Below, piece after piece: positions 1,592 through 25,443 of a DNA stretch of 25,443 nucleotides. The stretch covers positions 1-25,443 of the forward strand of contig JBFRWN010000109.1 of assembly GCA_051439605.1 (NCBI GenBank). The letters run 5' to 3'. Origin of the DNA: Synechococcus sp. GTDB taxonomy: Bacteria > Cyanobacteriota > Cyanobacteriia > Thermostichales > PCC-7336. Made by a program: the position numbers and the translations under genes. The notes under the pieces are model-generated. The model saw only the letters and a list, made by a program, of their open reading frames with translations, was not told the DNA's origin and made no database searches. Position 1 is the stretch's first letter. Every line of letters starts with the position of its first letter.

Positions 1592-1689
1592 AGAAACTCC
1601 CCTTTCTCTGTAGAACGACTGATATCAGAAATATCACGACGGTAGAAGAAATGTCGCGACCCGAGACAATCGAATTGAATGATTCTTCG

Positions 1690-2028: not shown

Positions 2029-2085
2029 AATAGTCAAAACCTCAACAAATACTCGAACAAACTATCTCAATCTCTTTCGCCAACC

Positions 2086-3176: not shown

Positions 3177-4616
3177 ATGACCGACCCATCCTCATATATT
3201 CCATCTCCACACACAAAAATTGTTGCCACGATTGGCCCCGCCAGCAGTTCCCCAGAAATTCTCAAGCAAATGGTTCGAGCGGGTATGAGCGTGGCTCGGC
3301 TGAACTTTTCCCACGGTAGCTACGACGACCACGCAAAAACCGTCTCAACGCTCCGGGCTGTTTCGGAAGAACTGGATACCCCGATTACGATTTTGCAAGA
3401 CCTACAGGGGCCAAAAATCCGGGTCGGCAAATTGTCCCACGAACCCTTCACGTTGAAGGAGGGAGAAACCCTTGCTCTTGTCCCCGTGGCCAATTTCACC
3501 GGTCAACCGAATACGGTGGCGATCGACTATCCCTATCTAGCAGAGGATGCACAGCCGGGGATGCAAGTGTTGCTGGATGACGGACTCTTAGAACTCAAGG
3601 TCGAGGCAGTGACCCCCCCTGCAGTATTCTGCAGAATTATTCAAGGAGGGCCGCTCAAAAGTCGTAAAGGGGTCAATCTACCTGACTTAAACGTGCGCCT
3701 GCCCTCTATGACTGACAAAGACAAGCAAGACTTGGAATTTGGGGTGTCGCAGGGAGTGGATGTTGTCTCCTTAAGCTTTGTTCGCAAAGGGGAAGATATT
3801 CGTGCCCTCAAACAGCTGTTGGCCGAACAGGGAGCAGGGGATATACCGGTGTTGGCCAAAATCGAGAAGCCACAGGCGATCGCCAACCTGGATGAAATTC
3901 TAGACGAATGCGATGCGGTGATGGTGGCGCGCGGAGACTTGGGGGTGGAGGTGAGCTCTGAAAAAGTACCGCTCCTGCAAAAGAAAATTATCGCCGAATG
4001 CAATCGCCGAGGAATTCCGGCCATCACCGCCACCCAAATGCTGGAGAGCATGATTCGCAACCCCCGACCCACGCGAGCTGAGGCCAGCGATGTGGCCAAC
4101 GCGATCGCTGACGGTACCGATGCTGTCATGCTCTCGGGGGAGTCGGCGATGGGAGCCTTTCCAGTGAAGGCAGTGGAAATGATGGCCCGCATTGCCGCCG
4201 ACATCGAGCCGGAAATCGAGTTTGTTAACTATCCTCCTGCCGAAACGGACGAAACCCACGCTCTCGTGGAAGCCCTGAACGACATCGATCGCATCCTCGA
4301 TCTGAAATGCATTGTTGCCTTTACCAGCACGGGGTATACGGCATTGGTGGCTTCGAAAGAACGCCCGAAAGCACCGGTGATTGCCGTTACCCCCGATCGA
4401 AACGTCTACCATCGGTTGAATTTGATATGGGGGGTCATCCCTTTGCTCATCGAACGCCAGGTGGAAACCTTTGAAGAATTAGTGGAACAGGCACAGACAT
4501 TGTTGGTAAGGCGCAAACTGGCAAGTGCAGGAGACAAGATTTTGATTGTGGGGGGGATTCCCACTCAGCAGGGGCGGGGGACAAACTTTTTGAAGATTCA
4601 TATGCTCGGTTATTAG
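3177..4616 (+). CDS. pyk: Pyruvate kinase
   Basis: [61 protein letters not shown]. Confidence 0.98.
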
Positions 4617-4682
4617 TCTTTAGGGTTGCCAGTAGGACTAAGAGCAAAGGACAAAGGACGGTTCGCGAAGGGGAGTTAGTTG

Positions 4683-5381
4683 ATGGCGAAGTTGATCTTA
4701 ATTCGACACGGTCAAAGCCTGTGGAATGCTGCAAACAAGTTCACGGGCTGGGTGGATGTGCCCTTAAGCGAGCGAGGTCGGGCTGAAGCCACGATCGCCT
4801 CTTGCAAGCTGCGGGATTATCGAGTGGATGTGTGCTTTACCAGCATGCTGATGCGGGCGATGGAGACGGCGGTGATTTGCCTGACGGAAGTGGACGAGAT
4901 TTGTAACGGCAAAATCCCCGTTATCAAGCACGGTGAAGACGATCCCAACTGGCATGGTTGGGATCGATACGCAGGCGATTCTGAACTGGAGCTACCTATT
5001 TATCCCAGTGCGGCGCTGGACGAACGACACTACGGTGACCTGCAGGGTTTGAATAAGGCAGAGACTGCTAAAAAGTTTGGGGACGAGCAGGTGAGCGAAT
5101 GGCGACGATCGTTCTCGGTGCGGCCTCCGGGGGGGGAGAGTTTGGAGGACACCCTGAAGCGGGCGGTGCCGTTTTTTCGCGATCGCATCCTCGCTCACCT
5201 CAAACAAGGGGATAACGTCCTAGTCTCCGCCCACGGCAATTCGCTGCGCTCCATCATCATGGAGCTGGACAAGCTGAGCCCGGAAGAAGTTCCCAAACTG
5301 GAATTAAAAACGGGGGTGCCGACTGTCTACGACATCGACTCGCAGGGAACCGTGGCAGAGAAGGTTGTTTTAGACAACTGA
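4683..5381 (+). CDS. gpmA: 2,3-bisphosphoglycerate-dependent phosphoglycerate mutase
   Basis: LIRHGQSLWNAANKFTGWVDVPLS, ERHYGDLQGLNK, WRRS, SAHGNSLR. GGGAG RBS lies 7 nt before ATG 4683. Confidence 0.95.
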   Translation: MAKLILIRHGQSLWNAANKFTGWVDVPLSERGRAEATIASCKLRDYRVDVCFTSMLMRAMETAVICLTEVDEICNGKIPVIKHGEDDPNWHGWDRYAGDSELELPIYPSAALDERHYGDLQGLNKAETAKKFGDEQVSEWRRSFSVRPPGGESLEDTLKRAVPFFRDRILAHLKQGDNVLVSAHGNSLRSIIMELDKLSPEEVPKLELKTGVPTVYDIDSQGTVAEKVVLDN

Positions 5382-5491
5382 TACCGATTACCCCCCTGAC
5401 AGTTCAACGGATGACGTCCCCTGCCACTCCAAAGAGCCCTCCCTCAATCATCCCCGTTGATATTCAAGTTTTTTCATCAGAGGAACCGATT

Positions 5492-8029
5492 GTGACCCAA
5501 GCACCAAACAGACTCGCTTCAGCAGCAATCCCCACCCCTGAAGACGATCGCACCGGCTTAAGCGTCGAAACCCTCAGGCGCGCGATGGCAGATAACCTCT
5601 ATTACATCCAGGGCAAATTACCCGAAATCGCCACTCTCAACGATTTCTACATGGCGCTTGCTTATACGGTCCGCGATCGCCTGTTGCAACGTTGGCTTGG
5701 CACGCTCCGGACTTACATCAAGAAAAATGTCAAAGTGGTGTGCTACCTGTCGGCAGAATTTTTAGAAGGGCCGCATTTGGGCAATAACCTGATTAATTTA
5801 GGAATTTACGATCGGGTAAGTCAGGCAGTGGAAGAATCGGGACTTGATTTAGACACATTAATCGGGCAAGAAGAAGAACCCGGCCTGGGCAATGGCGGCC
5901 TCGGTCGCCTGGCAGCCTGCTATATGGCTTCTCTATCCAGCCTTGAAATTCCTGCCATTGGTTACGGCATTCGCTACGAATACGGCATTTTCGATCAGGA
6001 AATTCGTGACGGCTGGCAGGTGGAAATCACCGATAAATGGTTGCAACTGGGCAATCCTTGGGAGCTACCGCGCCCGGAATCCAGTGTCATGGTGAAATTC
6101 GGAGGTCACACCGAGCCTTATACCGACGACCGTGGGGACTATCGCGTCCAATGGGTGCCGGACTACGTGCTCAAGGGCATTCCCTACGACACTCCGATTT
6201 TGGGATACAAGGTGTATACCGCCAATACGCTGCGGTTGTGGAAATCGGAGGCCTGCGAATCGTTCGATTTTCAGCGCTTCAACGTGGGGGACTACTACGG
6301 TTCGGTCAACGATAAAACCATTTCTGAAAACCTGACAAAGGTTCTGTATCCCAATGACGAACCGATTCAGGGCAAAGAACTGCGCCTACAGCAACAGTAT
6401 TTCTTTGTTTCTTGCTCCCTGCAAGACATGATCCGCATTCACCGGGCGAAAGGGAAGGGCTTAGAAACTTTCCACGAGAGTTTTGCCGCTCAACTGAACG
6501 ATACCCATCCCTCTGTTGCTGTTGCCGAATTAATGCGCCTGCTGGTGGACGAGCACTACATGGATTGGGAAAAAGCTTGGGATATCACCTACAAAACCTT
6601 TGGCTATACCAACCACACCCTCTTGCCCGAAGCGTTGGAGAAATGGCCCCTCAGTATTTTCGGTCGCATTCTGCCCCGCCATTTAGAGATCGTCTACGAA
6701 ATCAACCGCCGCTTTCTCGATCGCGTGCGCATTCATTATCCGAACGATAACGGAAAGCTGGCCCGCATGTCGCTGATTGACGACAGCGGCGAAAAGTACG
6801 TCCGCATGGCAAATCTGGCCACGGTTGGCAGTCACGCCGTCAACGGAGTGGCCGCCCTGCACAGCGAACTGGTCAAGCAAGATCTGATGCCGGACTTTTA
6901 CGACTACTGGCCGGATAAGTTTTTCAACGTCACCAATGGCGTTACCCCCCGTCGCTGGATGGTGTTGAGCAATCCCAAGCTGGCGGATTTGATTACCAGT
7001 CGAATTGGGGAAAATTGGATCGGTCACCTAGACGACCTAAAGAAGCTAGAAACCCTTGCTGACGACGCCGGATTCCGCCAAGAATGGCGACAGGTGAAAC
7101 TGGCCGCCAAACAGAAACTGGCCGATCGCCTCAAAGCAAGAACTGGGATCGCGATCGATCCCAACTCGATGTTCGACATTCAGGTGAAGCGCATTCACGA
7201 ATACAAGCGCCAGCACCTGAACGTCTTGCACATCATTACCCTATACAACCGAATCAAGCAGAATCCGAATCTAGACATTACCCCGCGCACCTTTATCTTT
7301 GGCGGTAAGGCCGCCCCCGGCTATGACATGGCCAAGCTGATTATCAAGCTGATTAACTCGGTGGGGGACATCGTCAACACCGATCCCGACGTGCGCGATC
7401 GCCTCAAGGTGGCATTCGTGCCGGACTATAACGTCACCAACAGCCAACCGGTTTACCCGGCGGCAGATCTGTCCGAGCAGATTTCCACAGCGGGTAAAGA
7501 AGCTTCCGGCACCGGCAACATGAAATTTATGATGAACGGTGCTGTAACCATCGGCACGCTGGACGGTGCCAACGTCGAGATGCGAGAGGAAGTAGGGGCA
7601 AAAAATTTCTTTTTGTTCGGCCTCACCACTGAAGAAGTTACCAATCTCTGGGCCACAGGCTATAACCCAAACGATTATTACAATTCCAATGCTGAGTTGA
7701 AACAGGCGATCGACCTAATCGGCTCCGGCATGTTCTCCCGCGGCGATCGCGACCTGTTTAAACCGATCGTCGATTCCTTGCGTTACAGCGATCCCTTCCT
7801 GCTGCTGGCGGACTACCCGTCCTACATCGACTGTCAGGGGAGGGTGGGCGAAGCCTATAAAGAGACCGACAGCTGGACCCGCATGTCTATACTCAATTCC
7901 GCCCGTTCCGGTAAGTTTTCCAGCGATCGTTCGATTCAGGATTACTGCCGAGACATCTGGGGGGCCAAACCCGTCAAGGTGGAGTTGGAGGAGTACGTTC
8001 AGAGCAAGGCGGGTTTGAGCGTCAGGTAA
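5492..8029 (+). CDS. glgP: Glycogen/starch/alpha-glucan phosphorylase
   Basis: GLGNGGLGRLAAC, QLNDTHP, VKRIHEYKRQ and the PLP-lysine motif EASGTGNMKF. The ORF is open from 5411; GTG 5492 after GAGGA is the likelier start. Confidence 0.97.
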   Translation: MTQAPNRLASAAIPTPEDDRTGLSVETLRRAMADNLYYIQGKLPEIATLNDFYMALAYTVRDRLLQRWLGTLRTYIKKNVKVVCYLSAEFLEGPHLGNNLINLGIYDRVSQAVEESGLDLDTLIGQEEEPGLGNGGLGRLAACYMASLSSLEIPAIGYGIRYEYGIFDQEIRDGWQVEITDKWLQLGNPWELPRPESSVMVKFGGHTEPYTDDRGDYRVQWVPDYVLKGIPYDTPILGYKVYTANTLRLWKSEACESFDFQRFNVGDYYGSVNDKTISENLTKVLYPNDEPIQGKELRLQQQYFFVSCSLQDMIRIHRAKGKGLETFHESFAAQLNDTHPSVAVAELMRLLVDEHYMDWEKAWDITYKTFGYTNHTLLPEALEKWPLSIFGRILPRHLEIVYEINRRFLDRVRIHYPNDNGKLARMSLIDDSGEKYVRMANLATVGSHAVNGVAALHSELVKQDLMPDFYDYWPDKFFNVTNGVTPRRWMVLSNPKLADLITSRIGENWIGHLDDLKKLETLADDAGFRQEWRQVKLAAKQKLADRLKARTGIAIDPNSMFDIQVKRIHEYKRQHLNVLHIITLYNRIKQNPNLDITPRTFIFGGKAAPGYDMAKLIIKLINSVGDIVNTDPDVRDRLKVAFVPDYNVTNSQPVYPAADLSEQISTAGKEASGTGNMKFMMNGAVTIGTLDGANVEMREEVGAKNFFLFGLTTEEVTNLWATGYNPNDYYNSNAELKQAIDLIGSGMFSRGDRDLFKPIVDSLRYSDPFLLLADYPSYIDCQGRVGEAYKETDSWTRMSILNSARSGKFSSDRSIQDYCRDIWGAKPVKVELEEYVQSKAGLSVR

Positions 8030-8069
8030 CTGGCTCGCTAAAGGGGAGTTCTTTTCAAGAGGTGTAATC

Positions 8070-9080
8070 GTGAAAGTCGCAGTCTTTAGCAGCAAAAAGT
8101 ACGATCGAGAATCTTTGCAAGCCGCCAATCGGGATGGCGAACACGAGCTAACGTTTTTCGAACCTCGCTTGACAGCGGTCACGGCTCCTTTGGCCGCAGG
8201 ATTTCCCGCCGTCTGCGCGTTCATTAACGATACCCTCGATGCCGATGCCCTGGAGGTGCTGGCGGCTGGAGGTACCCAATTAATCGCCCTGCGATCGGCG
8301 GGATTCAACCACGTCGATTTATCGATGGCGGCGAAATTGGGGCTGACGGTGGTGCGGGTTCCAGCCTATTCTCCCTATGCGGTTGCCGAACATGCCGTTG
8401 GCCTGATTTTGATGCTGAATCGCAAGCTGAATCGAGCCTACAATCGCGTCCGCGACGACAACTTCTCTCTAGAGGGGTTATTAGGATTCGACCTATTCGG
8501 CTCCACAGTTGGCATTGTGGGCACCGGCCAAATTGGATTGTGTTTTGCCCGCATCATGCACGGTTTCGGCTGCCACTTGCTAGCCTACGACCCGTTTGAA
8601 AATCCAGCAATTTCCGAGATGGGGGGTCGGTATGTCAGCTTGCCGGAATTGCTAGCCGAGTCCGATATCGTCTCGCTGCACTGTCCCTTAATGCCGGAAA
8701 CCCAGCACCTAATCAACGCTGACACGCTGCAGGATCTGAAACCAGGAGCCATGCTCATTAACACCAGCCGAGGGGGGTTGATCGATACCAAGGCGGCGAT
8801 CGATGCCATCAAATCCGGGATTATCGGCTATTTCGGCATTGACGTATACGAAGATGAGGAAAATCTTTTTTTCGAAGATTTATCCGACACCATCATTCAG
8901 GACGATTCGATTCAGCTGCTACAGTCCTTCCCGAATGTAGTCATCACCGCCCATCAGGGGTTCTTTACCCGCAATGCCCTGCAAAACATTGCGGTTACTA
9001 CCCTCCATAACATCTCTGCGTTCGAACGGGGTGCCCCCCTCAAGAACGAAGTCGCTTACAGGCCGCAGGTTCCTGCTTAA
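8070..9080 (+). CDS. ldhA: D-lactate dehydrogenase (D-2-hydroxyacid dehydrogenase family)
   Basis: RSAGFNHVDL, RVPAYSPYAVAEH, GIVGTGQIG, INTSRGGL, DVYEDEENLFF, TAHQGFFT (E. coli LdhA-like). Confidence 0.9.
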   Translation: MKVAVFSSKKYDRESLQAANRDGEHELTFFEPRLTAVTAPLAAGFPAVCAFINDTLDADALEVLAAGGTQLIALRSAGFNHVDLSMAAKLGLTVVRVPAYSPYAVAEHAVGLILMLNRKLNRAYNRVRDDNFSLEGLLGFDLFGSTVGIVGTGQIGLCFARIMHGFGCHLLAYDPFENPAISEMGGRYVSLPELLAESDIVSLHCPLMPETQHLINADTLQDLKPGAMLINTSRGGLIDTKAAIDAIKSGIIGYFGIDVYEDEENLFFEDLSDTIIQDDSIQLLQSFPNVVITAHQGFFTRNALQNIAVTTLHNISAFERGAPLKNEVAYRPQVPA

Positions 9081-9175
9081 TCCAGCGGGCATTCACCATA
9101 CCCGCAAGTAGACAGAACAACTCTCGCACCCATTCCTCATGCCCGTCACACGCACAGACATTCATTGACATTTGA

Positions 9176-10213
<1,038 letters not shown>

Positions 10214-10762
10214 AACGCTTATTCCGATGCAGAGATATAGATAGAAGTGAAGATTGAACGGTCGATTTTGTATAAAAATATATTTGGAGATCGGAATTCA
10301 AATGTAGATCGACACCTCTTGAAGGGCGATAAATTCTATTCAATTTATGCAAGATGAATGCCCGTCACAAGGTCTTCCTCATTTCGATATATCTTGCGAC
10401 AAAGAGTAGCGATATGGAGATACGTGCCACCTCCATAGCAAGGAAGGGGACTTTATGTCTAGATTAATCGGCAAAGCTTAAGGGTTTTTTAATTAACCTC
10501 TTCTTAAACTTGTACTTGCTATTTTGCTTTTAGGATGATGAAGAATTTCAGATTGAAGTGAAATCCGATCTTTAATTCAAAAGGCTTAAGGGAATTATTA
10601 GATTTTCCATCGTTTGCCATTATTTCTTCTAGCATAGTTTGTTAGTTTTTCAGCTAATGTTACGAAAACTGCTTGCATCTCCAATTCTTTGAACTCAAGC
10701 ATCTTTTTTGCTTTTTGAAAGGGGGTTTACGCAGTCCAGTCATACAAAATTAGGAGAACGTT

Positions 10763-13210
10763 GTGGTATCAACTCCAGAAAGGCCCTCCGTAACAGCTGC
10801 CCGTGGAGAAGGACAGGCGGGCTCGACAGTACAAGGCACGCCTCTCAGTGCAGAAGAACTCCGCAAGATTCATGCCTTCTGGCGCGCTTGCAACTACTTG
10901 GCGGCAGGCATGATCTACTTGAAAGACAACCCGCTGCTCAAAGAACCCCTCAAGAAAGAGCACATTAAACAGCGGCTGTTGGGCCACTGGGGATCCTCAC
11001 CGGCTCTCAGTTTCACCTACATCCACATGAATCGGCTGATTCAAAAGTACGACTTGGATGCCATTTATATGGCTGGCCCCGGCCACGGAGCTCCGGGAGT
11101 CATCGGTCCCGTTTACCTAGAGGGCACCTACTCCGAGGTCTACCCCGATAAGGGCGAAGATGAAGAGGGTATGCTCAACCTCTTCAAGTGGTTCTCCTTC
11201 CCCGGTGGAATCGGCAGTCACTGTACCCCCGAGCTCCCCGGGTCCATCCACGAGGGCGGGGAACTGGGCTATAGCCTTTCCCATGCCTACGGTGCTGCCT
11301 ACGACAATCCCGACCTGATTGTGACGGCAGTCGTGGGGGATGGGGAAGCCGAAACCGGCCCCCTCGCTACCGCCTGGCATTCCAACAAATATCTCAACCC
11401 CATTCGCGACGGGGCAGTACTGCCGATTTTGAACCTGAATGGCTACAAGATTGCCAACCCCACCATCCTGGCTAGAATTTCCCGCGAGGAATTGGAAAGC
11501 TTGTTCCGAGGGTACGGATATACCCCTTACATCGTGGAGGGAGATGACCCCGAAGTCATGCACCAGACGATGGCTGCCACGATGGAGGAGTGCATCCATT
11601 TAATTCGCTCCATCCAAGCCGATGCCCGCAGCAGTGGCATAGCCAAGCGACCCCGCTGGCCGATGATAGTGTTACGCACCCCCAAGGGGTGGACCGGCCC
11701 TCAAGAGGTGGACGGCCATAAAGTGGAAGGGTTCTGGCGGGCGCACCAAGTGCCGATGGGGGGAATGCACGACAATCCCCAACACCTGCAGCTCCTCGAG
11801 CAGTGGATGAAGGGCTACAAGCCGGAGGAACTGTTTGACGAAAACGGCACGCTGCTAGCAGAACTGAAGGAGCTGGCTCCGAAGGGACATCGTCGCATGA
11901 GCGATAACCCCGTTGCCAACGGTGGAAAGATTCGCAAGGCCCTGTGTCTGCCCGATTTTCGCGAACTGGCGATTGACGTGCCCAAGCCCGGAACGGTTGA
12001 GTTTGAAAACACCAAGGTGCTGGGCTTCCTGCTGCGGGAGGTGATGCGGCAGAACGCCGATAATTTCCGCCTGTTCGGCCCAGACGAAACGGCCTCTAAC
12101 CGGTTGCAAGCGGTCTACGAAGTATCCAAAAAAGCTTGGATGGCCGACTACCTGCCCGAAGATGAGGACGGCAGCCAGATGTCGCCGGACGGTCGGGTGA
12201 TGGAGATGCTGAGCGAGCATACCCTGCAGGGGTGGTTGGAAGGCTATTTAATGTCCGGTCGCCACGGATTCTTCCACACCTACGAAGCCTTTGCCCACGT
12301 GGTGGACTCGATGTTCAACCAGCACGCCAAGTGGCTGGACATTTGCAAAAACGATGTCCCCTGGCGGGCTCCAATTTCATCCCTGAACATTTTGCTGTCT
12401 TCGCTGGTATGGCGGCAGGATCATAACGGCTTCAGCCACCAAGATCCCGGTTACATCGACCTGGTTACCAACAAGAGCCCCGACGTGGTGCGGGTGTATT
12501 TCCCGCCGGATGCCAACTGCCTGCTGTCGGTGGCGGATCACTGCTTGAAGAGTACCGATTACGTTAACGTCATCGTCTCTGACAAGCAGATGCACCTGCA
12601 GTACCTGACGATGGACGAGGCGATCTCTCACTGCACCAAAGGTTTGGGGATTTGGGAATGGGCCAGCAACGACGATTGCGGCACCGCCCCCGACGAACCG
12701 GATGTGGTGATGGCCTGCTGCGGCGACATCCCCACGATGGAATCTTTGGCAGCCACGGCCATTTTGCGGGAGGAGTTCCCCGATCTCAAAGTCCGCTTTA
12801 TCAATGTGGTCGATTTAGCGAAGCTGGTGGACGAGAAAGAACATCCCCACGGCCTGACCAATCGCGACTTTGATACGCTGTTTACCCCCGATAAACCCAT
12901 CATCTTTAACTTCCACGGCTATCCCTGGTTGATTCACAAGCTGGTGTATCGTCGTACCAATCAAGAGCGGATTCACGTGCGCGGCTACAAGGAGAAGGGC
13001 AACATCAACACTCCTCTGGAGCTGGCGATGGAGAACCAAATCGATCGCTTCAATCTCGTGATTGACGTCATCGATCGCGTTCCCTCGCTAGGTTCCCGGG
13101 CGGCCTACGTTAAAGAACGCATGAAGAACGCCATCATCGAAAACACCCAATACGCCTTCACCTACGGAATCGATAAACCCGAGATCCTTGAGTGGAAGTG
13201 GCCTTATTAA
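10763..13210 (+). CDS. xfp: Phosphoketolase (xylulose-5-P/fructose-6-P)
   Basis: [17 protein letters not shown], ThDP motif GDGEAETG...[27 protein letters not shown] precedes the GTG start. Confidence 0.97.
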
Positions 13211-13222
13211 GCTGATGGCTGC

Positions 13223-13254
13223 AGGGGCATGACCGACATGCCCCTAATTTTTTT
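13223..13254 (+). terminator. Intrinsic terminator downstream of xfp
   Basis: Stem AGGGGCATG, loop ACCGA, stem CATGCCCCT, followed by AATTTTTTT. Confidence 0.75.
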
Positions 13255-13370
13255 GCATTGAGGATTCACAAACTGAGTTCCGCCCGATGGGAAATCATTC
13301 CCCGCGCTTGTCTTTTCAAAAGTTTTTCAAGACATTGGCCTCGGCCACGTTCGAGATTTGGAGTTGACCC

Positions 13371-14957
13371 ATGGACACAGCAACCCTTTGGCAACGCTAT
13401 CAAGATTGGCTGTACTATCACGCAGGCTTAGATATCTATCTAGATGTCAGCCGGATGAGGTTTGATGACCAACAGCTGGCCAGCCTGAAGCCAAAATTCG
13501 ACAAGGCTTTTCAGGATATGGAGGCTTTGGAAGGGGGGGCGATCGCCAACCCCGATGAAAAACGCATGGTGGGTCACTACTGGCTGCGTACTCCAGAATT
13601 GGCCCCCAGCCCGGAACTGAGCACGGCAATCGCCGAGGCGTTCGATCTCATTGAAGACTTTGCCCGAAAGGTTCACAGCGGAGAGATCCATCCCCCCGAA
13701 GCTCCGAAGTTTACCGATTTGTTGGCGATTGGCATTGGTGGTTCTGCCCTCGGGCCCCAGTTTGTGGCCTCTGCCCTCGCTCCGGACGATTCTCCCCTCG
13801 CGATTCATTTCATCGACAACACCGATCCCGCCGGGATCGATCGCGTCCTCAGCGGATTGAAGGACCGTCTGAAAAGCACCCTCATCCTCGACACCAGCAA
13901 GTCCGGCGGTACCCCCGAACCCCGCAACGGCATGCTGGAGGTCAAGCGCGTCTACGAGGAAATGGGCTTGAACTTTGCTTGTCACGCAGTCGCTACCACG
14001 ATGGAGGGCAGCAAAATGGACGAGCTGGCCAGAGCCGAAGGCTGGCTGGCGGAATTCCCCATGTACGACTGGGTGGGTGGGCGCACCTCGGAATTGTCCG
14101 CCGTCGGTCTGCTACCTGCCGCCCTGCAAGGCATTGACATCCGCGAACTGCTGGTGGGGGCTAAGGAAATGGATGCCGCCACCCGCGTCAAAGACATCCG
14201 CAACAATCCCGCCGCCCTGCTAACTCTATGCTGGTATGCCTCTGGTGACGGACAGGGCAAGAAAGATATGGTGGTTCTGCCCTACAAAGACAGTCTGCTG
14301 CTGTTCAGCCGCTACCTGCAGCAATTAATCATGGAGTCTTTGGGGAAAGAAACAGATCTAGACGGCAACACCGTTCATCAAGGTCTGGCTGTCTACGGCA
14401 ATAAAGGGTCCACCGACCAGCACGCCTACGTCCAACAGCTGCGGGAGGGTGTGCCGAATTTCTTTGCCACCTTTATCGAGGTGCTGCACGATCGCTCCGG
14501 CCCATCAATGGAAGTGGAACCGGGGGTCACTACTGGCGACTATTTATCGGGATTCCTGCAGGGAACTCGCCAAGCACTGTACGAGAATCAGCGGGACTCG
14601 ATTACGGTGACCATTCCGCAGGTGAATCCCCGCACGGTTGGAGCTCTGATCGCTCTCTACGAGCGTGCAGTAGGCTTCTATGCCTCCTTGGTGAACATCA
14701 ATGCCTATCACCAACCGGGTGTGGAAGCCGGGAAAAAGGCAGCTGCTTCGGTCCTGAAACTGCAAACGCAAGTGATGGAAACGTTGAAGGCGTCAGGGAC
14801 TCCTCTGGATTTGGTCACTTTAGCCTCCAAAGCGGGAGCCACCGATCGCGTGGAAGCGGTTTACAAAATCGTGCGGCATTTAGCGGCTAACAACCGGGGG
14901 GTGGTGATGAGCGGCGATCGCGCCCAACCCTCCAGCTTGAAAATTTCTCTACTGTAA
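13371..14957 (+). CDS. pgi: Glucose-6-phosphate isomerase
   Basis: [61 protein letters not shown]. Confidence 0.97.
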
Positions 14958-14960
14958 TCG

Positions 14961-15599
14961 ATGGGCTTAAAACTCTATTTTTTGCGACATGGGGAAACCA
15001 CCTCCAGCCAAGCTGGGGGCTACTGCGGCAGTCTCGATCTGGACTTAACAGAATCCGGCTACGAAATGGCTGAGGAGTTTGCCAAGGCTTACCATTCCTT
15101 GCCCTGGACGGCTGTTTATAGCAGCCCCCTGCAGCGGGCCGTCCATACTGCCAAGCCCCTGTGCGATGCGCTGGAGATCGATATCCAGCTGCGGGACGGA
15201 CTGAAGGAGATCGCCTACGGACGGTGGGAGGGGCTGACGCCAGAAGAGGTAAACGACAAGTATCACGACGAGTACGTGCGCTGGCTAGCCGATCCTGGCT
15301 GGAATTCCCCCACTGGTGGGGAAAAGGGGGTGGATATTGCCCGCCGCAGCGCCCTGGTGCTGGAGGAGATCGAACAAACCTACGACAGCGGCAACGTGTT
15401 GGTGGTGTCCCACAAAGCCACCATTCGCATCATGCTGTGCTCTTTGGCGGGCATCGATGTGGGGCGCTATCGCGATCGCATCAATATGCCGGTGGCTGCC
15501 GTTACCCTAGTGGAGTTTCGAGATCGCGGCCCCTTCGTCCATTTCTTGGCGGACCGCTCCTATTTGAGCGATCGCCTGCGTCAGCGAGCAGGGACGTAG
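14961..15599 (+). CDS. Histidine phosphatase (phosphoglycerate mutase-like) family protein
   Basis: LRHGET, YSSPLQRA, EIAYGRWEG, VVSHK. Starts 3 nt after the pgi stop. Confidence 0.88.
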   Translation: MGLKLYFLRHGETTSSQAGGYCGSLDLDLTESGYEMAEEFAKAYHSLPWTAVYSSPLQRAVHTAKPLCDALEIDIQLRDGLKEIAYGRWEGLTPEEVNDKYHDEYVRWLADPGWNSPTGGEKGVDIARRSALVLEEIEQTYDSGNVLVVSHKATIRIMLCSLAGIDVGRYRDRINMPVAAVTLVEFRDRGPFVHFLADRSYLSDRLRQRAGT

Positions 15600-15682
15600 T
15601 GGTGATAAGTCTGTAGATTGAGCGGTTATCGTCCGATTGCTGAATACGGAACTGCTATTATCCCGAGGAATACGAAACCCTA

Positions 15683-16000
15683 ATGAAATCCACCTTGACC
15701 AACAGCAAAGCAAATGAGTCCATCGGCGATCTCTCGGTTATCACTGCAGTGACCGAACTGCATAACCGGTTCAAAAATGCCCAATCCCATTACGCCACCA
15801 TTCGCGGTAACCTCCTCAGTCAGCTGGAGGAGATAAGTGACGGAGAGGACGAAAGCGGCTTAAAAAAGGAACTCGGGAAGGTGAACGAAAAAATCAACTA
15901 CTTTCGCGTCCTCAGCCATTCCCTCTCCATTGCGGATACCGTCCTGCACACGGACGCCACGATCGACGAATTTGGTCCCGACAGTCATGCCAATACCTAG
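15683..16000 (+). CDS. Hypothetical helical/coiled-coil protein
   Basis: 105-aa ORF with a GAGG upstream, co-oriented between the phosphatase and ackA. No recognisable motif. Confidence 0.65.
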   Translation: MKSTLTNSKANESIGDLSVITAVTELHNRFKNAQSHYATIRGNLLSQLEEISDGEDESGLKKELGKVNEKINYFRVLSHSLSIADTVLHTDATIDEFGPDSHANT

Positions 16001-16042
16001 ACCACAATCCTGCTGGCCGCGGGGGGGACGGATGCCATCCCC

Positions 16043-17275
16043 ATGAAGATACTGGTGCTCAATGCAGGATCCAGCAGTCAAAAAAGCTGCTTGTACGAGC
16101 TGACCGCTGACGGATTGCCTCCGTCCCCCCCGCCGGTGTGGGAAGCCCATATCGACTGGACTTTGGCGGCCGCTGGCGGCGTGATGAAAGTGAAAGCCAA
16201 CGGGGCGGTTCTCAAAGTAGAGCTGACGGATGGCGATCGCGATCGTGCTATCCCCCTGCTGCTGGACACCCTGGTGTCAGGGGAAACCCAAGTGCTGCAA
16301 CAGCTGTCGGAAATCGATACGGTCGGCCATCGGGTGGTACACGGGGGAGCGGAGTATTCCGGGGCAACTCTCGTTACGGAGGACGTGAAAGCGGCGATCT
16401 CCCGCCTAACGGTCTTGGCCCCCGCCCACAATCCCGCCAACTTGGCCGGCATCGAAGCGATCGAGCAGGCATTGGGCGACGTTCCCCAGATGGCAGTCTT
16501 CGACACCGCCTTTCACAGTCACATGCCCCCAGAGGCTGCCGTCTATCCCCTCCCCTACGAGTGGTACGAAGAAGGCATCCGTCGCTATGGCTTCCACGGC
16601 ATCAGCCACCATTACTGCTCGCATCGTGCCGCCGATTTGTTGGGTAAGCCCCTAAAATCCCTCAAGCTAGTGACTTGCCATTTGGGGAACGGCTGTTCCC
16701 TAGCTGCGGTGCGCGAGGGCTACAGTATCGACACTACGATGGGGTTTACCCCGCTGGAGGGATTGATGATGGGCACCCGCAGCGGCTCCATCGATCCGGC
16801 GATCCCGATCCATCTAATGCGGGAGTACGGCTTTGACCCCAGTCGCCTGGACACCCTGCTCAACAAAGAATCTGGGTTGAAGGGGGTGTCCGGGATTTCC
16901 GCCGATCTGCGGGCGGTGCTGGAGGGGATCGACCGAGGCAGCGATCGCGCCCAACTGGCCTTCGATATGTTTATCCATCGCTTGCGAGCCTCGATCGGGG
17001 CGATGGTGGCCAGCCTAGCGGGGGTGGATGCGATCGTGTTTACCGCCGGGATTGGGGAAAATTCAGCGATCGTGCGCCAGCAAGCCTGCGCGGGATTCGA
17101 GTTTTTAGGGTTGCAGCTGGATGGAGAAAAAAATAACTCTTCTCCAGTGGATTGCGATATCTCCGCCGCCGATTCGGCGGTGCGGGTGTTGGTTGTACGT
17201 ACGGAGGAGGATTGGGCGATCGCGCAAGCCTGCTGGCAGCACCAGTCCAGCAATTTAGTCAATCTGCCTCGTTAA
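16043..17275 (+). CDS. ackA: Acetate kinase
   Basis: LVLNAGSSSQK, VGHRVVHGG, FDTAFH, RRYGFHGISH, CHLGNGCS, FTAGIGENS. Confidence 0.97.
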   Translation: MKILVLNAGSSSQKSCLYELTADGLPPSPPPVWEAHIDWTLAAAGGVMKVKANGAVLKVELTDGDRDRAIPLLLDTLVSGETQVLQQLSEIDTVGHRVVHGGAEYSGATLVTEDVKAAISRLTVLAPAHNPANLAGIEAIEQALGDVPQMAVFDTAFHSHMPPEAAVYPLPYEWYEEGIRRYGFHGISHHYCSHRAADLLGKPLKSLKLVTCHLGNGCSLAAVREGYSIDTTMGFTPLEGLMMGTRSGSIDPAIPIHLMREYGFDPSRLDTLLNKESGLKGVSGISADLRAVLEGIDRGSDRAQLAFDMFIHRLRASIGAMVASLAGVDAIVFTAGIGENSAIVRQQACAGFEFLGLQLDGEKNNSSPVDCDISAADSAVRVLVVRTEEDWAIAQACWQHQSSNLVNLPR

Positions 17276-17326
17276 TCTCAGGCCTCAATCAAAATCTGAC
17301 ATTCACATTTATTAGGAGCAACGAAC

Positions 17327-18625
17327 GTGGCATCTACAATCACCTCAATCCTCGCTCGGGAAATCCTCGATTCTCGCGGCAACCCTACTGTCGAAATAGA
17401 CCTTACCTTAGCTGACGGAACCCAAGCGCGCGCTGCAGTCCCCTCCGGAGCCTCCACCGGATCCAGAGAAGCTGTCGAGCTGCGGGACAACGATCCCAAC
17501 CGCTACGGAGGCAAGGGTGTTTTACAAGCGGTGGCCAACGTCAATGGCCCGATCGCCGATCTCCTGAAGGGAAAAGACGCCGCCCAACAAACGGCGATCG
17601 ACGAGGCGATGATTTCTCTCGACGGCACCGACAACAAAGGCAAACTCGGAGCTAACGCCATCTTGGGGGTATCAATGGCCTGTGCCAGAGCTGCAGCCAC
17701 ATCCACAGGTTTCCCCCTCTATCAATACTTAGGAAATGCCGACTCTGTCCTGCTGCCCGTCCCCTGCATGAACGTCCTTAACGGTGGCATGCATGCCGAC
17801 AACAGCGTTGACTTTCAGGAATTCATGATCGTGCCGGTGGGGGCCACCACGTTTGCCGAGGCGATGCAAATGGGAGCCGACACCTACCACGCCCTCAAAT
17901 CGATTTTGAAGCAGAAGGGTTACAGCACTGGCGTGGGGGACGAGGGGGGATTTGCCCCCGACCTGAAGGCGAATGTGGAGGCGATCGAATTCATTCTGCA
18001 GGGAATTGAAAAAGCCGGGTTGAAGCCCGGCGAGGATATCGCGATTGCCCTCGACCCCGCCACCACCGAGCTGTATCGAGAGGGTGGCTCCTACCTGTTT
18101 TTCAAGTCCGACCAAAGCACCAAGTCTGCCGCAGAGATGATCGATCTGTGGGAGAGCTGGGTAAACCAGTTTCCGATCATCTCCATCGAAGATGGCTTGG
18201 GGGAAAGCGACTGGGACGGTTGGAAGCTAATGACCAAGCGATTGGGAGATCGCATTCAGCTTGTGGGGGACGATGCCTTTGTTACTAATCCGGCGATTAT
18301 CAAACAGGCGATCGCCGAAGGCGTGGGCAACTCCTCTTTGATCAAGGTGAACCAGATTGGCTCCGTCACCGAAACCCTGAATGCCATTAGTGACTCGCTG
18401 GCGGCTGATTATACCTGCATGGTCAGCCACCGCTCTGGCGAAACCCCCGATGATTTCATCGCCGACTTGGTGGTGGCCACAGGGGTGGGCCAAATTAAAT
18501 CCGGTGCTCCCTGCCGAGGAGAACGCCTTTCAAAATACAACCAGCTACTGCGCATCGAAGAAAACCTTGGTAATAGAGCACAATACGCTGGCCGATCCGC
18601 GTTTAGAGTAAAGCAGGTAGTTTGA
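17327..18625 (+). CDS. eno: Enolase
   Basis: [50 protein letters not shown] precedes the GTG start. Confidence 0.98.
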
Positions 18626-18753
18626 TCTGAATTGCCCCTGGGAACTTTTACCGGCGATCTGCCCATCAGCAATGAGCGGCAATGACTGCGATCGCAGTAC
18701 GAAAATTTCAACTGGGGGCAATGATTCAATTGTTTTTTTTGAGGAGTGACCTG

Positions 18754-19326
18754 ATGAAAGTAATTAGCACTGCATTATTAGCTGTCGCAGCGGTCTGTAC
18801 AGTTACGATTCCTGCACGTTCTGACATTAAAGTCTCTTTGGATACCTTATGCAGCCAGTTCCCTCTCAATAGTCGCTGCACCAGAGTGGATCGGGGTTTA
18901 CCTGCTGTAGAGACAGGGGAGCTGATACCGGAAGGCTGTACTGCCCTACCAGCAATTGGTGCCGAAAGTACAGAAGTGACCAAAACTGCTTCACCGGGTC
19001 GGGTTCCGAATCTGGCGTTGATTTGGTTTGGTCCCAATTGGAATACCGATTTTGTGGTTCCCGAAGAAGCCGTCTATTCCCGCTACTATGCTTCGGTCCT
19101 GTCGCAGGATATCGGCAACTACGATATTGAAATGTATTTGAAATACCAGGACGGAACTGCTGACTTGGTTCACGAAGAAGATAAGTTCCCCATGTCCGAG
19201 CAACACTTGCATGTATTTTCCGGAGAGCCCCGTTCCGGAACCCAGCCTTACGAGGTCAATCTAAAGATTGGCGGCCCCGGAACGGTTCAGGATACTTACA
19301 CCATTCAAGTATTAGGTTGTCCATAG
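18754..19326 (+). CDS. Secreted hypothetical protein with CxxFPLNSRC motif
   Basis: GAGGAG before ATG 18754 (ORF open from 18682). Signal-peptide-like N-terminus, LCSQFPLNSRC and a beta-rich C-terminal region (WNTDFVVP...YLKY...VLGCP). Confidence 0.7.
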   Translation: MKVISTALLAVAAVCTVTIPARSDIKVSLDTLCSQFPLNSRCTRVDRGLPAVETGELIPEGCTALPAIGAESTEVTKTASPGRVPNLALIWFGPNWNTDFVVPEEAVYSRYYASVLSQDIGNYDIEMYLKYQDGTADLVHEEDKFPMSEQHLHVFSGEPRSGTQPYEVNLKIGGPGTVQDTYTIQVLGCP

Positions 19327-19518
19327 CACCCAAAGGCTTTGGGCTGTTGCGATCGCAAATGGACGACTAAAAAGGTTCTCTGTCTGACGATTTCTTAGCA
19401 GTAGCCCAAAGTGAAATTGTCCCTAATAGCTTTCCCGCAGTCTAGGAGAGTCTATAAGTTTGTTGGACGAACAGCCAACTGAATTGAAGCGAATTAACTT
19501 TTTGATCGGGAGTCTGAT

Positions 19519-20700
19519 ATGTCAAAAAATCTTCTAGACCAACTGAAAGAGGTAACCGTTGTCGTTGCCGATACGGGGGACATTCAAGCGATCGAGCAAT
19601 TTACCCCGCGGGATGCGACCACCAATCCCTCTCTGATTACAGCAGCTGCCCAAATGCCGGAGTATCGTGGAATTGTGACCGATACGCTGCGGCAAGCCAA
19701 GATCGATGCCGGTGCAGCTGCAAGCAAGGACGAAATTGTGTCCCTAGCCTTCGATCGCCTAGCAGTGGCTTTCGGCCAAAAAATTCTGGAAATCGTGCCC
19801 GGACGGGTGTCCACCGAAGTGGATGCGCGACTGTCCTATGACACCGAAGCGACGCTTGCTAAAGCTCGCTATTTAATTTCGGAATACGAAAAAGCCGGGA
19901 TTTCTCGCGATCGCATCCTGATTAAAATTGCTTCCACTTGGGAGGGAATTCGCGCTGCCGAAATCTTGGAAAAAGAAGGCATTCACTGCAACTTAACCCT
20001 GCTGTTTGGTTTTCATCAAGCGGTAGCCTGTGCCGAAGCGGGGGTCACATTGATCTCGCCCTTCGTGGGCCGCATTTTGGACTGGTATAAGAAGGATTCG
20101 GGACGGGATAGCTATCCCTCCAATGAAGACCCTGGCGTGCTATCCGTCACCAAGATCTACAACTACTACAAGAAATTTGGCTACAACACAGAGGTGATGG
20201 GGGCCAGTTTCCGTAACATTGGCGAAATCTCCGAGCTGGCAGGATGCGACTTGCTGACCATCTCCCCCAAGCTGCTGGATGAGTTGCGATCGACCACAGC
20301 TGACTTACCTCGCAAGCTCGAACCAACGCTCGCCCAAGACGCCAATATCGAACAGGTCTCTGTGGATAAAGCCACGTTTGAGAAGATGCATAAAGCAGAT
20401 CGGATGGCGTCAGATAAGTTGGCAGAGGGTATTAGTGGATTTTCTAAAGCCCTAGAGGCTTTGGAAAATCTCCTAGCAGAACGATTAGCTTTCCTAGACG
20501 GCAAGGAGAAGGTCAGCAACGCTGCCAAAGATGTCTTTCAAGTTTACGACTTGGACGGAGATGGATTCATCACCCGCGAGGAGTGGGCAGGGGCTGATGC
20601 CGTTTTTGACGCGTTGGATCTAAACGGTGATGGCAAGATTTCACCGGAAGAAATTGCTGCTGGCTTAGGCGCAGCCTACCGTCTTTCTAAAGCCAGTTGA
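19519..20700 (+). CDS. tal: Transaldolase with C-terminal EF-hand pair
   Basis: [26 protein letters not shown], Schiff-base [13 protein letters not shown]-hand loops [12 protein letters not shown] and [12 protein letters not shown]. Confidence 0.96.
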
Positions 20701-22129: not shown

Positions 22130-23137
22130 TTATTTCAATGTCAAGCTCATATAGTAATTGACCTCTTCCAAAAATCGCCAGGACAATAGTAACTGGGAAA
22201 TACGCGTGCCTGAGCTCAATTCAAACTCCTCTTTTGGAATAACTTTATCGATTGAAATTCCAGTATAATTAACAATATGTTCTTCTAGGCTTGCGACTGT
22301 TTGTGCAGACAGTACTCCATCTAGATGAATGACAATCGCTCGACGACCCCAATAGTTTGAAGGTACCGCAGAGAGGGAAAAAGGTGCCTGCTCTGAAGAT
22401 AACATTGCCGCCAAATCAAAAGGTAGAGGTAGGGAAGGGAGTGGTATTACTGCCGGTTCGAAAATTAGCTCGATTCTGTAACAGTTTTTAGGTAATCTTC
22501 CTCGCATTTTTTGGCGAGCCCATGTTTGGATTTGACTTGGAAAAATCTTAATTACAACATTGGCATTAATCTTCTGAAAATCAATCCAGCGTTTGTAAGC
22601 AGTCATTCTCTGCATCATTTCTTGCTCAAGAGTTTCAGCTTTATGCCCCCTACGTTTCAAGTCACGAGCCCATTTCCAGGCCCATTTCACCTCGGGATCG
22701 GGGTCTATGAAAATACGAAAATCTAGGGTTGAGGAAAGTTCTGGGTAGAGGGTGTGCAGTCCCTCAACAACTACGATCGGAGGGGGAGAGAATGTAAGAG
22801 AGTCCCCAAATTTTCCGGTACTGTGATCGTAAATGGGTAAATCGATGGTCTTGCCCTGTTTAAGTGCCAACAAGTGGTCGGCAAGCAAGTCCAGGTGATT
22901 GGCATCAGGATCGAGGGGGAGCCTACCGCTATGTTCTCGCTGCTCACGATCTTCCTTGTGGTAACCATCAGTACAGATGGTTTCAACTAAATCGCTACCT
23001 ATGAGCCCTCGAATACCATCGCAAAAGGTTGATTTACCACTTCCACTATCACCTGCCACACCAATCAAGATTGGTGAATGAAGTCGTTTGAGTTGATTGC
23101 GTAATGTCTCGCAGGCTAGTTGTACAGGATAGGTCAT
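22130..23137 (-). CDS. prk: Phosphoribulokinase-like protein (atypical, archaeal-type-like)
   Basis: IGVAGDSGSGKST P-loop, DGYH...REQR, PLDPDAN, PIYDHSTG, VEGLH and WKWARDLKRRGH are PRK rather than uridine-kinase hallmarks. Confidence 0.7.
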   Translation of the reverse strand: MTYPVQLACETLRNQLKRLHSPILIGVAGDSGSGKSTFCDGIRGLIGSDLVETICTDGYHKEDREQREHSGRLPLDPDANHLDLLADHLLALKQGKTIDLPIYDHSTGKFGDSLTFSPPPIVVVEGLHTLYPELSSTLDFRIFIDPDPEVKWAWKWARDLKRRGHKAETLEQEMMQRMTAYKRWIDFQKINANVVIKIFPSQIQTWARQKMRGRLPKNCYRIELIFEPAVIPLPSLPLPFDLAAMLSSEQAPFSLSAVPSNYWGRRAIVIHLDGVLSAQTVASLEEHIVNYTGISIDKVIPKEEFELSSGTRISQLLLSWRFLEEVNYYMSLTLK

Positions 23138-23501
23138 TTAAAGATAAAACCAAACTCAAGATACTATCTACAGAACAAATTCACTTATTTTAACTAGGAT
23201 GCACTCTATAATTTATAATTTCAATATCAAGTCATAAATTATTTGTGAAGATTATAAGCCTAAGTAGACTTTTCTCTAATACATGAGATTCTTCTTTCTA
23301 GGAGCAAAAAAAATTCAGAATGTAGATATAGATAGGTTTCCCCCTTGTAGTTAAACCAAGCTAATCGAAAAAAGACTTTACTGATTTTTATTTGAATAGA
23401 TTTCTAACTTCTGCTAGGCTTCTATTTTTCATTCTCATGCATGCTTTACATTTGAAATAAGGGCACAAAGATAAATGAGTCAGAGCAAAGTTTTCTATAA
23501 A

Positions 23502-23596
23502 TATAGCGGTTTTCATTGGGGTGAGGTATAGGAATGCAACTTTAGTTTTTGATTAGCAAGGCTACAGGTGAACCTCATTCATTCTGAAACCGGTAC
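23502..23596. repeat. Short MITE-like element with imperfect terminal inverted repeats
   Basis: Left arm TATAGCGGTTTTCATTGGGGTGAGGT and right arm ACCTCATTCATTCTGAAACCGGTA are partly complementary. It resembles small dispersed repeats I recall from cyanobacteria. Confidence 0.4.
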
Positions 23597-24293
23597 ATCA
23601 GCAATATCTGTCTCTGACTCTACTTATTAGCATTTATTATATTAGGTAACCTTGATTAATTGCCATTTCCCCCTTTCGCAGTGCTGAAATCCTTTAAATA
23701 CGTAGCTGTCCTTAGCAAAAATTTTATATATCGAGGTGCCCATTAGAGAATATGGTTGTTTGTTGGGTGAGCAGTTGCAAGATCAAATTCGACGCTTAAC
23801 TCATTTTCACTGGTGGCCTGAGCAGACCTCCATCTTTGTAGGAGTAGCCTAGCCGGATTTGGTATTAGCTTCTCCCTTTCACCAACTTTCCTAAGCTTTT
23901 ATACTCATTTCAGAATTGAGATGTACTCAGTATCTGTCAGCCCTCAAGAAGCTATATGCAGATATAGCTGTAATACATTTACGCTTATCTTGGCTAGCAC
24001 CAGGCCTGCCGTTGACAGATCCACATGGTTGACAATCCCCTGTAATGCACTCGTAGGTTGTGTCCCAGAGAACATGACTGATGAATATGGTCTGGCTTTC
24101 TTAAAAAACCCAAACGGAATTCTTATACGAAAAATTCTTGGTGTTGAATTCAACTAACTTTAAACTCTCTGTTGACTGTGCTTGAAAAGGTGCATGGATA
24201 TAAGCATTACAACGAATCATGACGAGAAAAGCACCCAAGATTGAGTGGTTTGCTCAAGAATTCCGTACTTCATTCATTAGTCCGAAACTGCCC

Positions 24294-25443
24294 ATGCAAG
24301 CAACCCAACCCGTCCGCACCACTCTAAAATTAATCGCGCCGCTCTCCGGTATCCTGCTCCCGATCGAATCCGTTCCGGACCCCGTATTTGCTCAAAAGAT
24401 GGTGGGGGATGGCATTTCCATCGATCCCGTCTCGACCCATTTGAAAGCTCCCTGCGAAGGTGAAGTGATTCAGCTCCATCCTTCCCACCATGCGGTATCC
24501 ATCAAGTCAGCAGAAGGAATTGAAATTCTAATGCACGTTGGTTTAGATACGGTGGAGCTGCGGGGAAAGGGATTTACACCAAAAGTGCAGGAGGGCGATC
24601 GCGTCAAAACCGGCGACGATCTGATTGAATTCGACATCGACTACGTGGCCCTGCACGCCAAAAGTTTGCTCACCCAGGTGGTCGTGACAAACAGCGATCG
24701 GGTCGCGGAATTCGTGCCCCAATCCGGTCAGGTGACGGCCGGAACAGATATTGCCCTGGAGCTGGCACTAGAGGCTGGGGAAGAAGCGGTTGCCGAGGTA
24801 GTGGGAGAGGTAGTGACCTCGGAACCCATTTCGATCGGCAATCCCCAGGGGTTGCACGCCCGTCCGGCGGCGGTGCTAGTGAACTTAGCCAAGAAGTATT
24901 CGTCACAGGTGTCGCTGCATCGAGGTAGCGATCGCGCCAATGCCAAAAGCGTCGTATCCATCATGGTAATGCAAGTAGCTTTGGGAGACACCGTGACCCT
25001 GGAGGCAACGGGTAATGATGCCAAGGCGGCGATTACCCACTTAACGGAGGCGATAAAATCCGGCTTGGGGGAAGAGGGGGCAGCTCCGGTAGCGGCCCCA
25101 GCCAGTATTGCTCAGTCGGATTTGAAGGCTCCTCCCCCGCAGCCCAAATCAGACGATCCCAACATCATTCTGGGGGTAGCGGCGTCCTCCGGGTTAGCCT
25201 TGGGGAAGGCCTATCGAGTACGGCAGCAGCAGGTGGAGGTGGCAGAAGCAGGGGAGTCGCCGGAGGCGGAGCGGAGGCGGTTGGAGGACGCGATCGCCCA
25301 GGCTAATCGCGAAGTGGAATCCCTGCGGGCAAAGATTCACGGTCAGGGGAATCCCGGCAAGGCGGCCATCTTTGCGGCCCACCAGGAAATTTTGCAAGAC
25401 CCCGAGCTGATGCACGTGACCACCAGCGCCATCAATAAAGGCA
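24294..25443 (+). CDS. ptsP: PTS multiphosphoryl transfer protein EIIA(Glc)-HPr-Enzyme I fusion, 3'-partial
   Basis: Hand-translated, stop-free to the window end. EIIA-Glc: APLSG, VPDPVFAQKMVGDG, SHHAV, ILMHVGLDTV. HPr: NPQGLHARPAA, ANAKSVVSIM. EI N-terminus: GVAASSGLALG, ERRRL, AAIFAAHQEILQDPEL. An alternative in-frame ATG lies at 24219. Confidence 0.93.
   Translation, partial: MQATQPVRTTLKLIAPLSGILLPIESVPDPVFAQKMVGDGISIDPVSTHLKAPCEGEVIQLHPSHHAVSIKSAEGIEILMHVGLDTVELRGKGFTPKVQEGDRVKTGDDLIEFDIDYVALHAKSLLTQVVVTNSDRVAEFVPQSGQVTAGTDIALELALEAGEEAVAEVVGEVVTSEPISIGNPQGLHARPAAVLVNLAKKYSSQVSLHRGSDRANAKSVVSIMVMQVALGDTVTLEATGNDAKAAITHLTEAIKSGLGEEGAAPVAAPASIAQSDLKAPPPQPKSDDPNIILGVAASSGLALGKAYRVRQQQVEVAEAGESPEAERRRLEDAIAQANREVESLRAKIHGQGNPGKAAIFAAHQEILQDPELMHVTTSAINKG

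Follow-up and report, generated by a model that had tools for sequence, protein, structure and literature searches.

A cyanobacterial EIIA-HPr-Enzyme I fusion gene at a contig end: the predicted phosphoryl-relay half of a two-gene glucose-family PTS

To our knowledge, reviews and older surveys regard cyanobacteria as PTS-less. A reading frame resembling a sugar PTS gene, running off the end of a contig from a Synechococcus genome, raises the question of whether the gene is genuine, whether it belongs to the cyanobacterial host, and whether the rest of a working system exists. The window analyzed here, 25,443 bp in length, is the entire contig C109 of that genome (G000). Its final stretch very probably represents the 5′ part of a fusion gene, the predicted phosphoryl-relay half of a two-gene glucose-family PTS, with the following parts:

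24294..25443, + strand: EIIA-Glc/HPr/Enzyme I fusion gene, 5′ 383 codons (full length in relatives ~851 aa)
24327..24701, + strand: EIIA-Glc domain (PF00358, Pfam) with the SHHAV and MHVGLDT histidines
24822..25058, + strand: HPr domain (PF00381, Pfam) with the GLHARP phospho-His site and a Ser46-like NAKS
25173..25442, + strand: start of Enzyme I, PEP-utilisers_N (Pfam), profile positions 2–90 of 121

A stop-free frame on the forward strand (24219..25442) reaches the last base of the contig; because it is visible only in an open-ended listing, the gene is missing from the ORF track, as an earlier note on this DNA had remarked. That note had read the frame as an EIIA, an HPr, and the beginning of an Enzyme I, and the open frame, the Pfam domains, and the positions of all motifs named (SHHAV at nt 24483, MHVGLDT at 24531, GLHARP at 24849, NAKS at 24939) bear this out. 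The stop or frameshift that it had held would count against its reading is absent across the 1,149 nt of the fusion gene present. ATG 24294 is the likely start codon, because full-length relatives begin MQTSQP. The EIIA region (PTS_EIIA_1, aa 12–136) scores 156.5 bits against a Pfam cut-off of 27.2 (E = 3.5e-46) and lies above the cut-off of NCBIfam model TIGR00830 as well (138.8 vs. 97.5). The PTS-HPr match (TIGR01003 family) covers aa 177–255 (87.8 bits vs. a cut-off of 23; E = 5e-25), and that to PEP-utilisers_N (TIGR01417 family) covers aa 294–382 (64.9 bits vs. 24.4; E = 1e-17), stopping short in the profile because the contig end cuts the domain.

Alignment with the E. coli IIA-Glc structures 1f3g/1ggr shows both EIIA histidines conserved (NHAFSIES/HHAVSIKS and VHFGIDTVEL/MHVGLDTVEL), and we take these to correspond to His75 and His90 of the E. 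coli protein; GLHARPAA and NAKS likewise align with the same motifs of solved HPr proteins. The serine of NAKS is present and no match to Hpr_kinase_C was found across the genome, Ser46 regulation being optional for the HPr family; since no HPr kinase was found, this serine probably has no regulatory role. Neither a PTS-Ntr type EIIA (PF00359) nor a separate HPr was found in the genome, and with all three of these absent the cassette looks self-contained.

There is no sign that the contig is chimeric or foreign. HIP1 density is 0.86 per kb in C109 and in the whole 4.9-Mb genome alike, GC3 of the fusion fragment (0.645) lies within the range of neighboring genes (0.55–0.71), and the closest homologs of the fragment are all cyanobacterial, as the earlier note's reading of a non-chimeric cyanobacterial contig had presupposed. 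The three HIP1 octamers (GCGATCGC) that it had counted in the fragment are found at 24595, 24928, and 25290, where ~0.03 would be expected from base composition; these sites agree with a long residence of the gene in cyanobacterial genomes.

The reason for the gene's incompleteness is suggested by a second copy of the fusion at C54:3487-4636, which is 86% identical, also lies at a contig end, and stops at the same query position. Compared in 50-nt bins, the two copies agree at 35–46 of 50 positions up to 25093 and at 48–50 of 50 beyond it; ahead of the final 350 nt they are ~80% identical.

25094..25443, + strand: near-identical stretch shared with the C54 copy (343/350 nt, 98–100%)

This stretch is the start of a repeat that breaks both contigs, with the pattern expected of merging assembly-graph paths, and the fusion gene is evidently cut by an assembly break rather than by mutation. 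The contig's other end is similar in kind: a DDE_5 transposase gene at 3-1190 is cut by the start of C109, which is thus bounded by repeats at both ends.

The Enzyme I phospho-His mobile domain and PEP-binding domain lie past the contig end and occur nowhere else in the assembly. The sole assembly match to PEP-utilizers_C, on C126, was rejected as the missing Enzyme I, being a PpsA-type dikinase that carries PPDK_N. EIIC (PF02378) also has no match in the assembly, which is 99.98% complete by marker genes. The earlier note had regarded a genome without EIIC as evidence against a transport system; in the formal sense the assembly is one, but contig C12 ends within the 3′ tail of an EIICB gene (C12:43488-43949, − strand; 85% identical to residues 490–637 of the EIICB of G001, a genome of the same genus), and metagenome unitigs described below extend over the EIIC region. 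We attribute the missing EIIC to collapse of the repeat. In the C12 tail frame, the last part of one EIIB domain is followed by a linker and a second EIIB-like domain; this is the one EIICB tail assembled against two 5′ fusion copies. A search for a second exit of the repeat, using the C12 tail and the G001 operon against the whole assembly (blastn, tblastn), returned only C109, C54, and C12. No contig in the bin is shorter than 3,130 bp; a repeat contig of small size or double depth could thus have escaped binning. The lesson, on this reading, is that the apparent truncation and the apparent loss of a permease would arise only from a repeat that was collapsed and dropped from the bin.

Two smaller repeats were observed along the way. 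The intergenic segment C12:43201-43460, immediately 3′ of the EIICB stop, contains a repeat that recurs on C74 (91%), C111 (88%), C112, C88, C89, and others. On C109, a ~136-nt element lies at 23464-23599; one metagenome contig passes over it, joining 23463 directly to 23600, and the C12 copy of the region is without it. C93 and C119 match parts of this element at 77–81%, and it looks like a small mobile repeat.

Complete versions of the system are present in relatives. In G001 and in G036, fusion frames of 861 and 860 aa between stops (~851 aa from ATG) contain EIIA_1, HPr, PEP-utilisers_N, the mobile domain, and the PEP-binding domain, with EIICB frames of 671 and 666 aa, respectively, directly 3′; this second gene shows an EIIC and two EIIB matches. 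The 851-aa protein P0001 shares 98.7% identity with the C54 copy and has retained GGATSH and GVCGG, which align with the Enzyme I sites of E. coli, presumably His189 and Cys502 in E. coli numbering. Among 80 related loci from named genomes, an EIICB homolog lies directly 3′ of the fusion in 69 (3 of these matching EIIB parts only); at the other 11, the sequence ends within the fusion gene or ≤211 nt past its end. The permease carries an extra C-terminal EIIB-like domain (residues ~522–643 in G001, L010:8659-10587), also present in the C12 tail. The first EIIB has DACITRLR in 62/62 rows analyzed, whereas the second EIIB-like domain is without Cys in all 19 cyanobacterial rows having the motif, with Val or Ala instead; 18 non-cyanobacterial rows have a shifted Cys there (e.g., DACAETRLR).

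The earlier note had proposed looking past the contig end for the remainder of Enzyme I and an EIIBC gene, and metagenome unitigs cover both. Four marine-sediment metagenome runs contain the fusion stretch, and among the runs holding it no RNA run is on record. X1 contigs at least 80% like the G001 operon leave no bin empty between 5967 and 10475; they fill 27 of the 30 bins, and the 3 without coverage are among the first and last, where the two genes end or have already ended. Unitig depth, which is one value per contig and not a copy number, is 32.6 and 28.6 for the two 5′ variants in run X1 (the latter being the putative C54 copy) and 57.6–67.6 for unitigs of the Enzyme I remainder and EIICB; the corresponding values are 7.4 and 5.0 against 11.7 in X3, and 3.9 and 3.5 against 7.7 in X4. 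The rest of Enzyme I and the permease thus exist in these samples, at about the summed depth of the two 5′ heads, and the depths are compatible with a collapsed repeat. That both also belong to the host genome is something we infer, because the basis is relatives and metagenome unitigs.

Nearly the whole contig is, moreover, a second copy of part of C12:

3177..20700, + strand: sugar-catabolism/fermentation cluster, ~85% identical to the C12 copy
22130..23137, − strand: PRK/uridine-kinase-family gene, flanked by the cluster and the PTS gene (93% identity with the C12 copy)

The cluster runs pyk, gpm, glgP, D-2-hydroxyacid dehydrogenase, gap, xfp, pgi, gpm, ackA, eno, an ORF, and tal, and a HAD hydrolase gene lies between tal and the PRK-family gene. 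The transaldolase (19519-20700) has C-terminal EF-hand motifs, and two ORFs, at 18682-19326 (214 aa, between eno and tal) and 1709-2089 (126 aa), have no Pfam match. Positions 1339-20684 and 22131-23645 of C109 duplicate C12:18238-38369 and 40683-42102, the cluster in reversed orientation and the PRK-family region on the same strand; at ~20 kb this is by a wide margin the largest internal similarity in the bin. On C12 the EIICB tail, a LOG-like gene, and the PRK-family gene, the last near the tail, lie upstream of the cluster, and on C109 the PTS gene lies downstream, so that PTS genes flank the cluster on both contigs.

Copies of xfp and ackA fall into two types within the genus. The G000 bin holds two window-like copies of each (95% and 90% aa identity to each other, respectively), G001 holds one xfp/ackA of each type, and G002 and G003 hold the more distant type only. 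The window-like type, found in the PTS-bearing genomes, shows 94–95% (xfp) and 89–90% (ackA) aa identity, and the distant type of G001, G002, and G003 shows 86–87% and 61–67%; the latter is absent from the G000 bin. These four related genomes give a hint of joint transfer of the PTS and the fermentation island within the genus. Elsewhere, homologs of gpm, gap, glgP, ldhD, or eno lie ≤6 kb from the cassette at four further cyanobacterial loci; no cluster genes were found within the 6-kb flanks of the remaining 76 of the 80 related loci, nor within the 20-kb stretches examined in G001 and G036.

The two fusion copies and two clusters can be read as paralogues in one genome or as alleles of two organisms, with C109 derived from a second, co-binned strain or species. 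This second explanation carries a substantial chance of being correct: ~85% identity between C109 and C12 over ~20 kb is typical of congeners, bin contamination is 4.12%, the bin has two window-like xfp/ackA copies and lacks the genus-typical distant type, and the switch to near-identity in the Enzyme I part could reflect recombination between co-occurring strains. However, other contig pairs share at most 3.1 kb of such similarity, so that a second organism would supply almost nothing but C109; the two 5′ variants keep a ratio of ~1:1 in three runs that differ ~8-fold in depth; and the order of PTS and cluster genes differs between C109 and C12. We lean toward two paralogous copies, with two clusters, in one genome.

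The earlier note had placed the system in the glucose/GlcNAc family with a likeness to NagF; the family assignment holds, while the NagF/NagE likeness does not extend to the partner gene, which in relatives scores as PtsG and not as NagE. The G001 EIICB passes the cut-offs of both glucose-specific models (679 vs. 591.8 on TIGR02002; 656.8 vs. 647 on NF008301, PtsG) and falls below that of the GlcNAc-specific TIGR01998 (493.2 vs. 553.2), and the G036 partner is likewise above the glucose-specific EIICB cut-offs. The G001 protein matches E. coli PtsG from one end to the other (PtsG residues 3–475; E = 4e-165), and both DACITRLR and GITEPIEF are conserved. Glucose is our best guess for the substrate on these scores. 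A NagF/NagE-type PTS for N-acetylglucosamine seems unlikely, though it accounts for several features: NagF and NagE of Pseudomonas and Ralstonia form a two-gene PTS whose fusion protein has the same EIIA-HPr-EI order, chitinolytic Chitinibacteraceae (Chitinibacter, Chitinilyticum, Jeongeupia) have homologous cassettes at 55–57% identity, and the NagE model NF007608 also matches the EIIA part (E = 1.3e-31). Set against these are the permease scores and the lack of a GlcNAc-6-P deacetylase or deaminase among the genes of C109. Finally, a truncated remnant or purely regulatory relay lacking any permease, as the gaps in the assembly and the existence of regulatory-only PTS proteins in other bacteria might suggest, is very improbable given intact active-site motifs throughout, the EIICB tail on C12, the unitigs over the 3′ part of Enzyme I and the EIIC region, the permease directly downstream in most related loci, and the lack of a PTS-Ntr type EIIA or HPr kinase.

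In a glucose-family system of this kind, the fusion gene would continue into the Enzyme I phospho-His and PEP-binding domains, with the EIICB gene coming next. PEP would donate phosphate to the Enzyme I His, from which it would move to the HPr His and the EIIA His within one polypeptide, and from there to the EIIB Cys of the permease, which would import and phosphorylate a glucose-type sugar. The resulting sugar-6-phosphate would enter the adjacent pgi/xfp/ackA/ldh cluster of glycolysis and phosphoketolase genes, and it is plausible that the PTS is connected metabolically with eno, pgi, xfp, and ldh. The neighboring phosphoketolase, acetate kinase, and lactate dehydrogenase genes suggest that sugar uptake driven by PEP is coupled to fermentation in the dark, and the system probably serves sugar use under dark or anoxic conditions in sediment mats; if true, this coupling would bear on cyanobacterial mixotrophy in sediments. 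A more elaborate proposal, which we regard as a long shot, is that one genome has two PTS operons with heads ~80% identical and Enzyme I and EIICB kept near-identical through gene conversion, each next to its own copy of a 20-kb glycogen-to-lactate/acetate fermentation island that has been duplicated and moves with the PTS in this genus, and that HPr and EIIA drive sugar re-uptake in dark anoxic mats and control the adjacent glycogen phosphorylase. HPr controls glycogen phosphorylase in E. coli.

Upstream of the fusion gene, one element stands out:

24143..24154, no strand: perfect 12-bp palindrome GTTGAATTCAAC, 151 nt 5′ of ATG 24294

The palindrome has three occurrences in the 4.9-Mb genome, two of them ~150 nt upstream of the two PTS copies (the second at C54:3340-3351); the G001 version has one mismatch, and the sequence was not found in other related loci. 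It is a candidate operator. Promoter and terminator scans of 23100-24400 returned 5 sites against 3.5 ± 2.1 in shuffles and 1 site against 0.9, respectively, neither above chance, and a search of 23000-24400 against Rfam at E up to 0.1 gave no match.

The cassette is thinly distributed among cyanobacteria. Of 401 genomes sampled from the phylum, 5 have an EIIC match above the Pfam cut-off, and the fusion gene occurs in 3 of 41 relatives, this genome counted; within the genus it is present in one of three other genomes and was not found in the closed genome G002. This rarity indicates that the cassette is best regarded as a rare accessory trait of cyanobacteria, in line with the general statement, in the available text of PMC2405797, that cyanobacteria are without a sugar PTS, and with the same expectation in the earlier note. 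Cyanobacterial carriers include Leptolyngbya, Halomicronema, Nodosilinea, Kovacikia, Planktothrix, Tildeniella, Stenomitos, and Chroococcus; the cassette is present after all in a small, mostly filamentous, mat-forming minority of the phylum. Beyond cyanobacteria it occurs, at 51–61% identity, in Competibacteraceae, Chromatiaceae, Chitinibacteraceae, Actinomycetota, Anaerolineae, Acidobacteriota, Verrucomicrobiota, and others.

Profile and tree searches across cyanobacteria, which the earlier note had called for, place the cyanobacterial copies in one clade. In a FastTree phylogeny of 74 rows, from which eleven partial loci were dropped, all 24 labeled cyanobacterial rows fall on one side of a single branch with support of 100, apart from Proteobacteria, and the C109 copy groups with C54, P0001, P0002, and G001 (five rows). 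A proteobacterial source, which the note's likening of the gene to NagF-type fusions of Proteobacteria might suggest, is not shown by this topology, and a recent transfer from that group is not supported. Because the cyanobacterial copies form one clade, any acquisition would be old relative to the spread within cyanobacteria; these data fit an old acquisition or old origin, followed by loss and by transfer among cyanobacteria. A proteobacterial donor was also considered from the backbone of the tree, which is without resolution between the cyanobacterial clade and other phyla, and no donor is named.

A search of the open-access literature found no paper describing a native cyanobacterial sugar PTS or studying one experimentally. 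The available text of a 2023 review of cyanobacterial heterotrophy (PMC10515406) has a single instance of "PTS", within the title of a cited work, and the sugar transporters named there are GlcP, Frt, and Pro1404. The family is apparently known to databases and unstudied in cyanobacteria.

Among known systems, the E. coli glucose PTS (PtsI, PtsH, Crr/IIA-Glc, and PtsG/EIICB-Glc) shares the domains and catalytic motifs, including the IIA-Glc histidines, the Enzyme I His and Cys of relatives, and the G001 permease with its EIIB Cys. It differs in that EIIA, HPr, and Enzyme I are here joined in one polypeptide, in that order, and in that the permease of relatives has ~120 extra C-terminal residues forming the second EIIB-like domain. 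NagF/NagE-type systems share the order of the fusion and the EIICB gene that follows it, in a cassette that spans many phyla; however, the cyanobacterial partner lies above the glucose cut-offs and below the GlcNAc one, and the cyanobacterial copies form their own clade. Fructose-type multiphosphoryl transfer proteins also fuse HPr and Enzyme I with an EIIA domain, and some database matches are labeled "FPr" or "multiphosphoryl transfer protein," but their EIIA is of the fructose/Ntr type (PF00359), whereas the EIIA here is PF00358. Other counterparts are cyanobacterial proteins of ~851 aa annotated as "phosphoenolpyruvate--protein phosphotransferase" in Leptolyngbya sp. PCC 7375, Leptolyngbya sp. 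Heron Island J, Nodosilinea, Phormidium, Planktothrix agardhii, and Rubidibacter lacunae, which have the same five domains, are 62–77% identical to the fragment, and belong to the same clade; the C109 copy differs from them in being truncated by the assembly and in being one of two diverged 5′ copies in its bin. The five-domain architecture is found in all of the best 120 database matches, many of them named cyanobacterial proteins (NCBI or JGI), and by this comparison the C109 gene is a further member of a known, already annotated family rather than a discovery.
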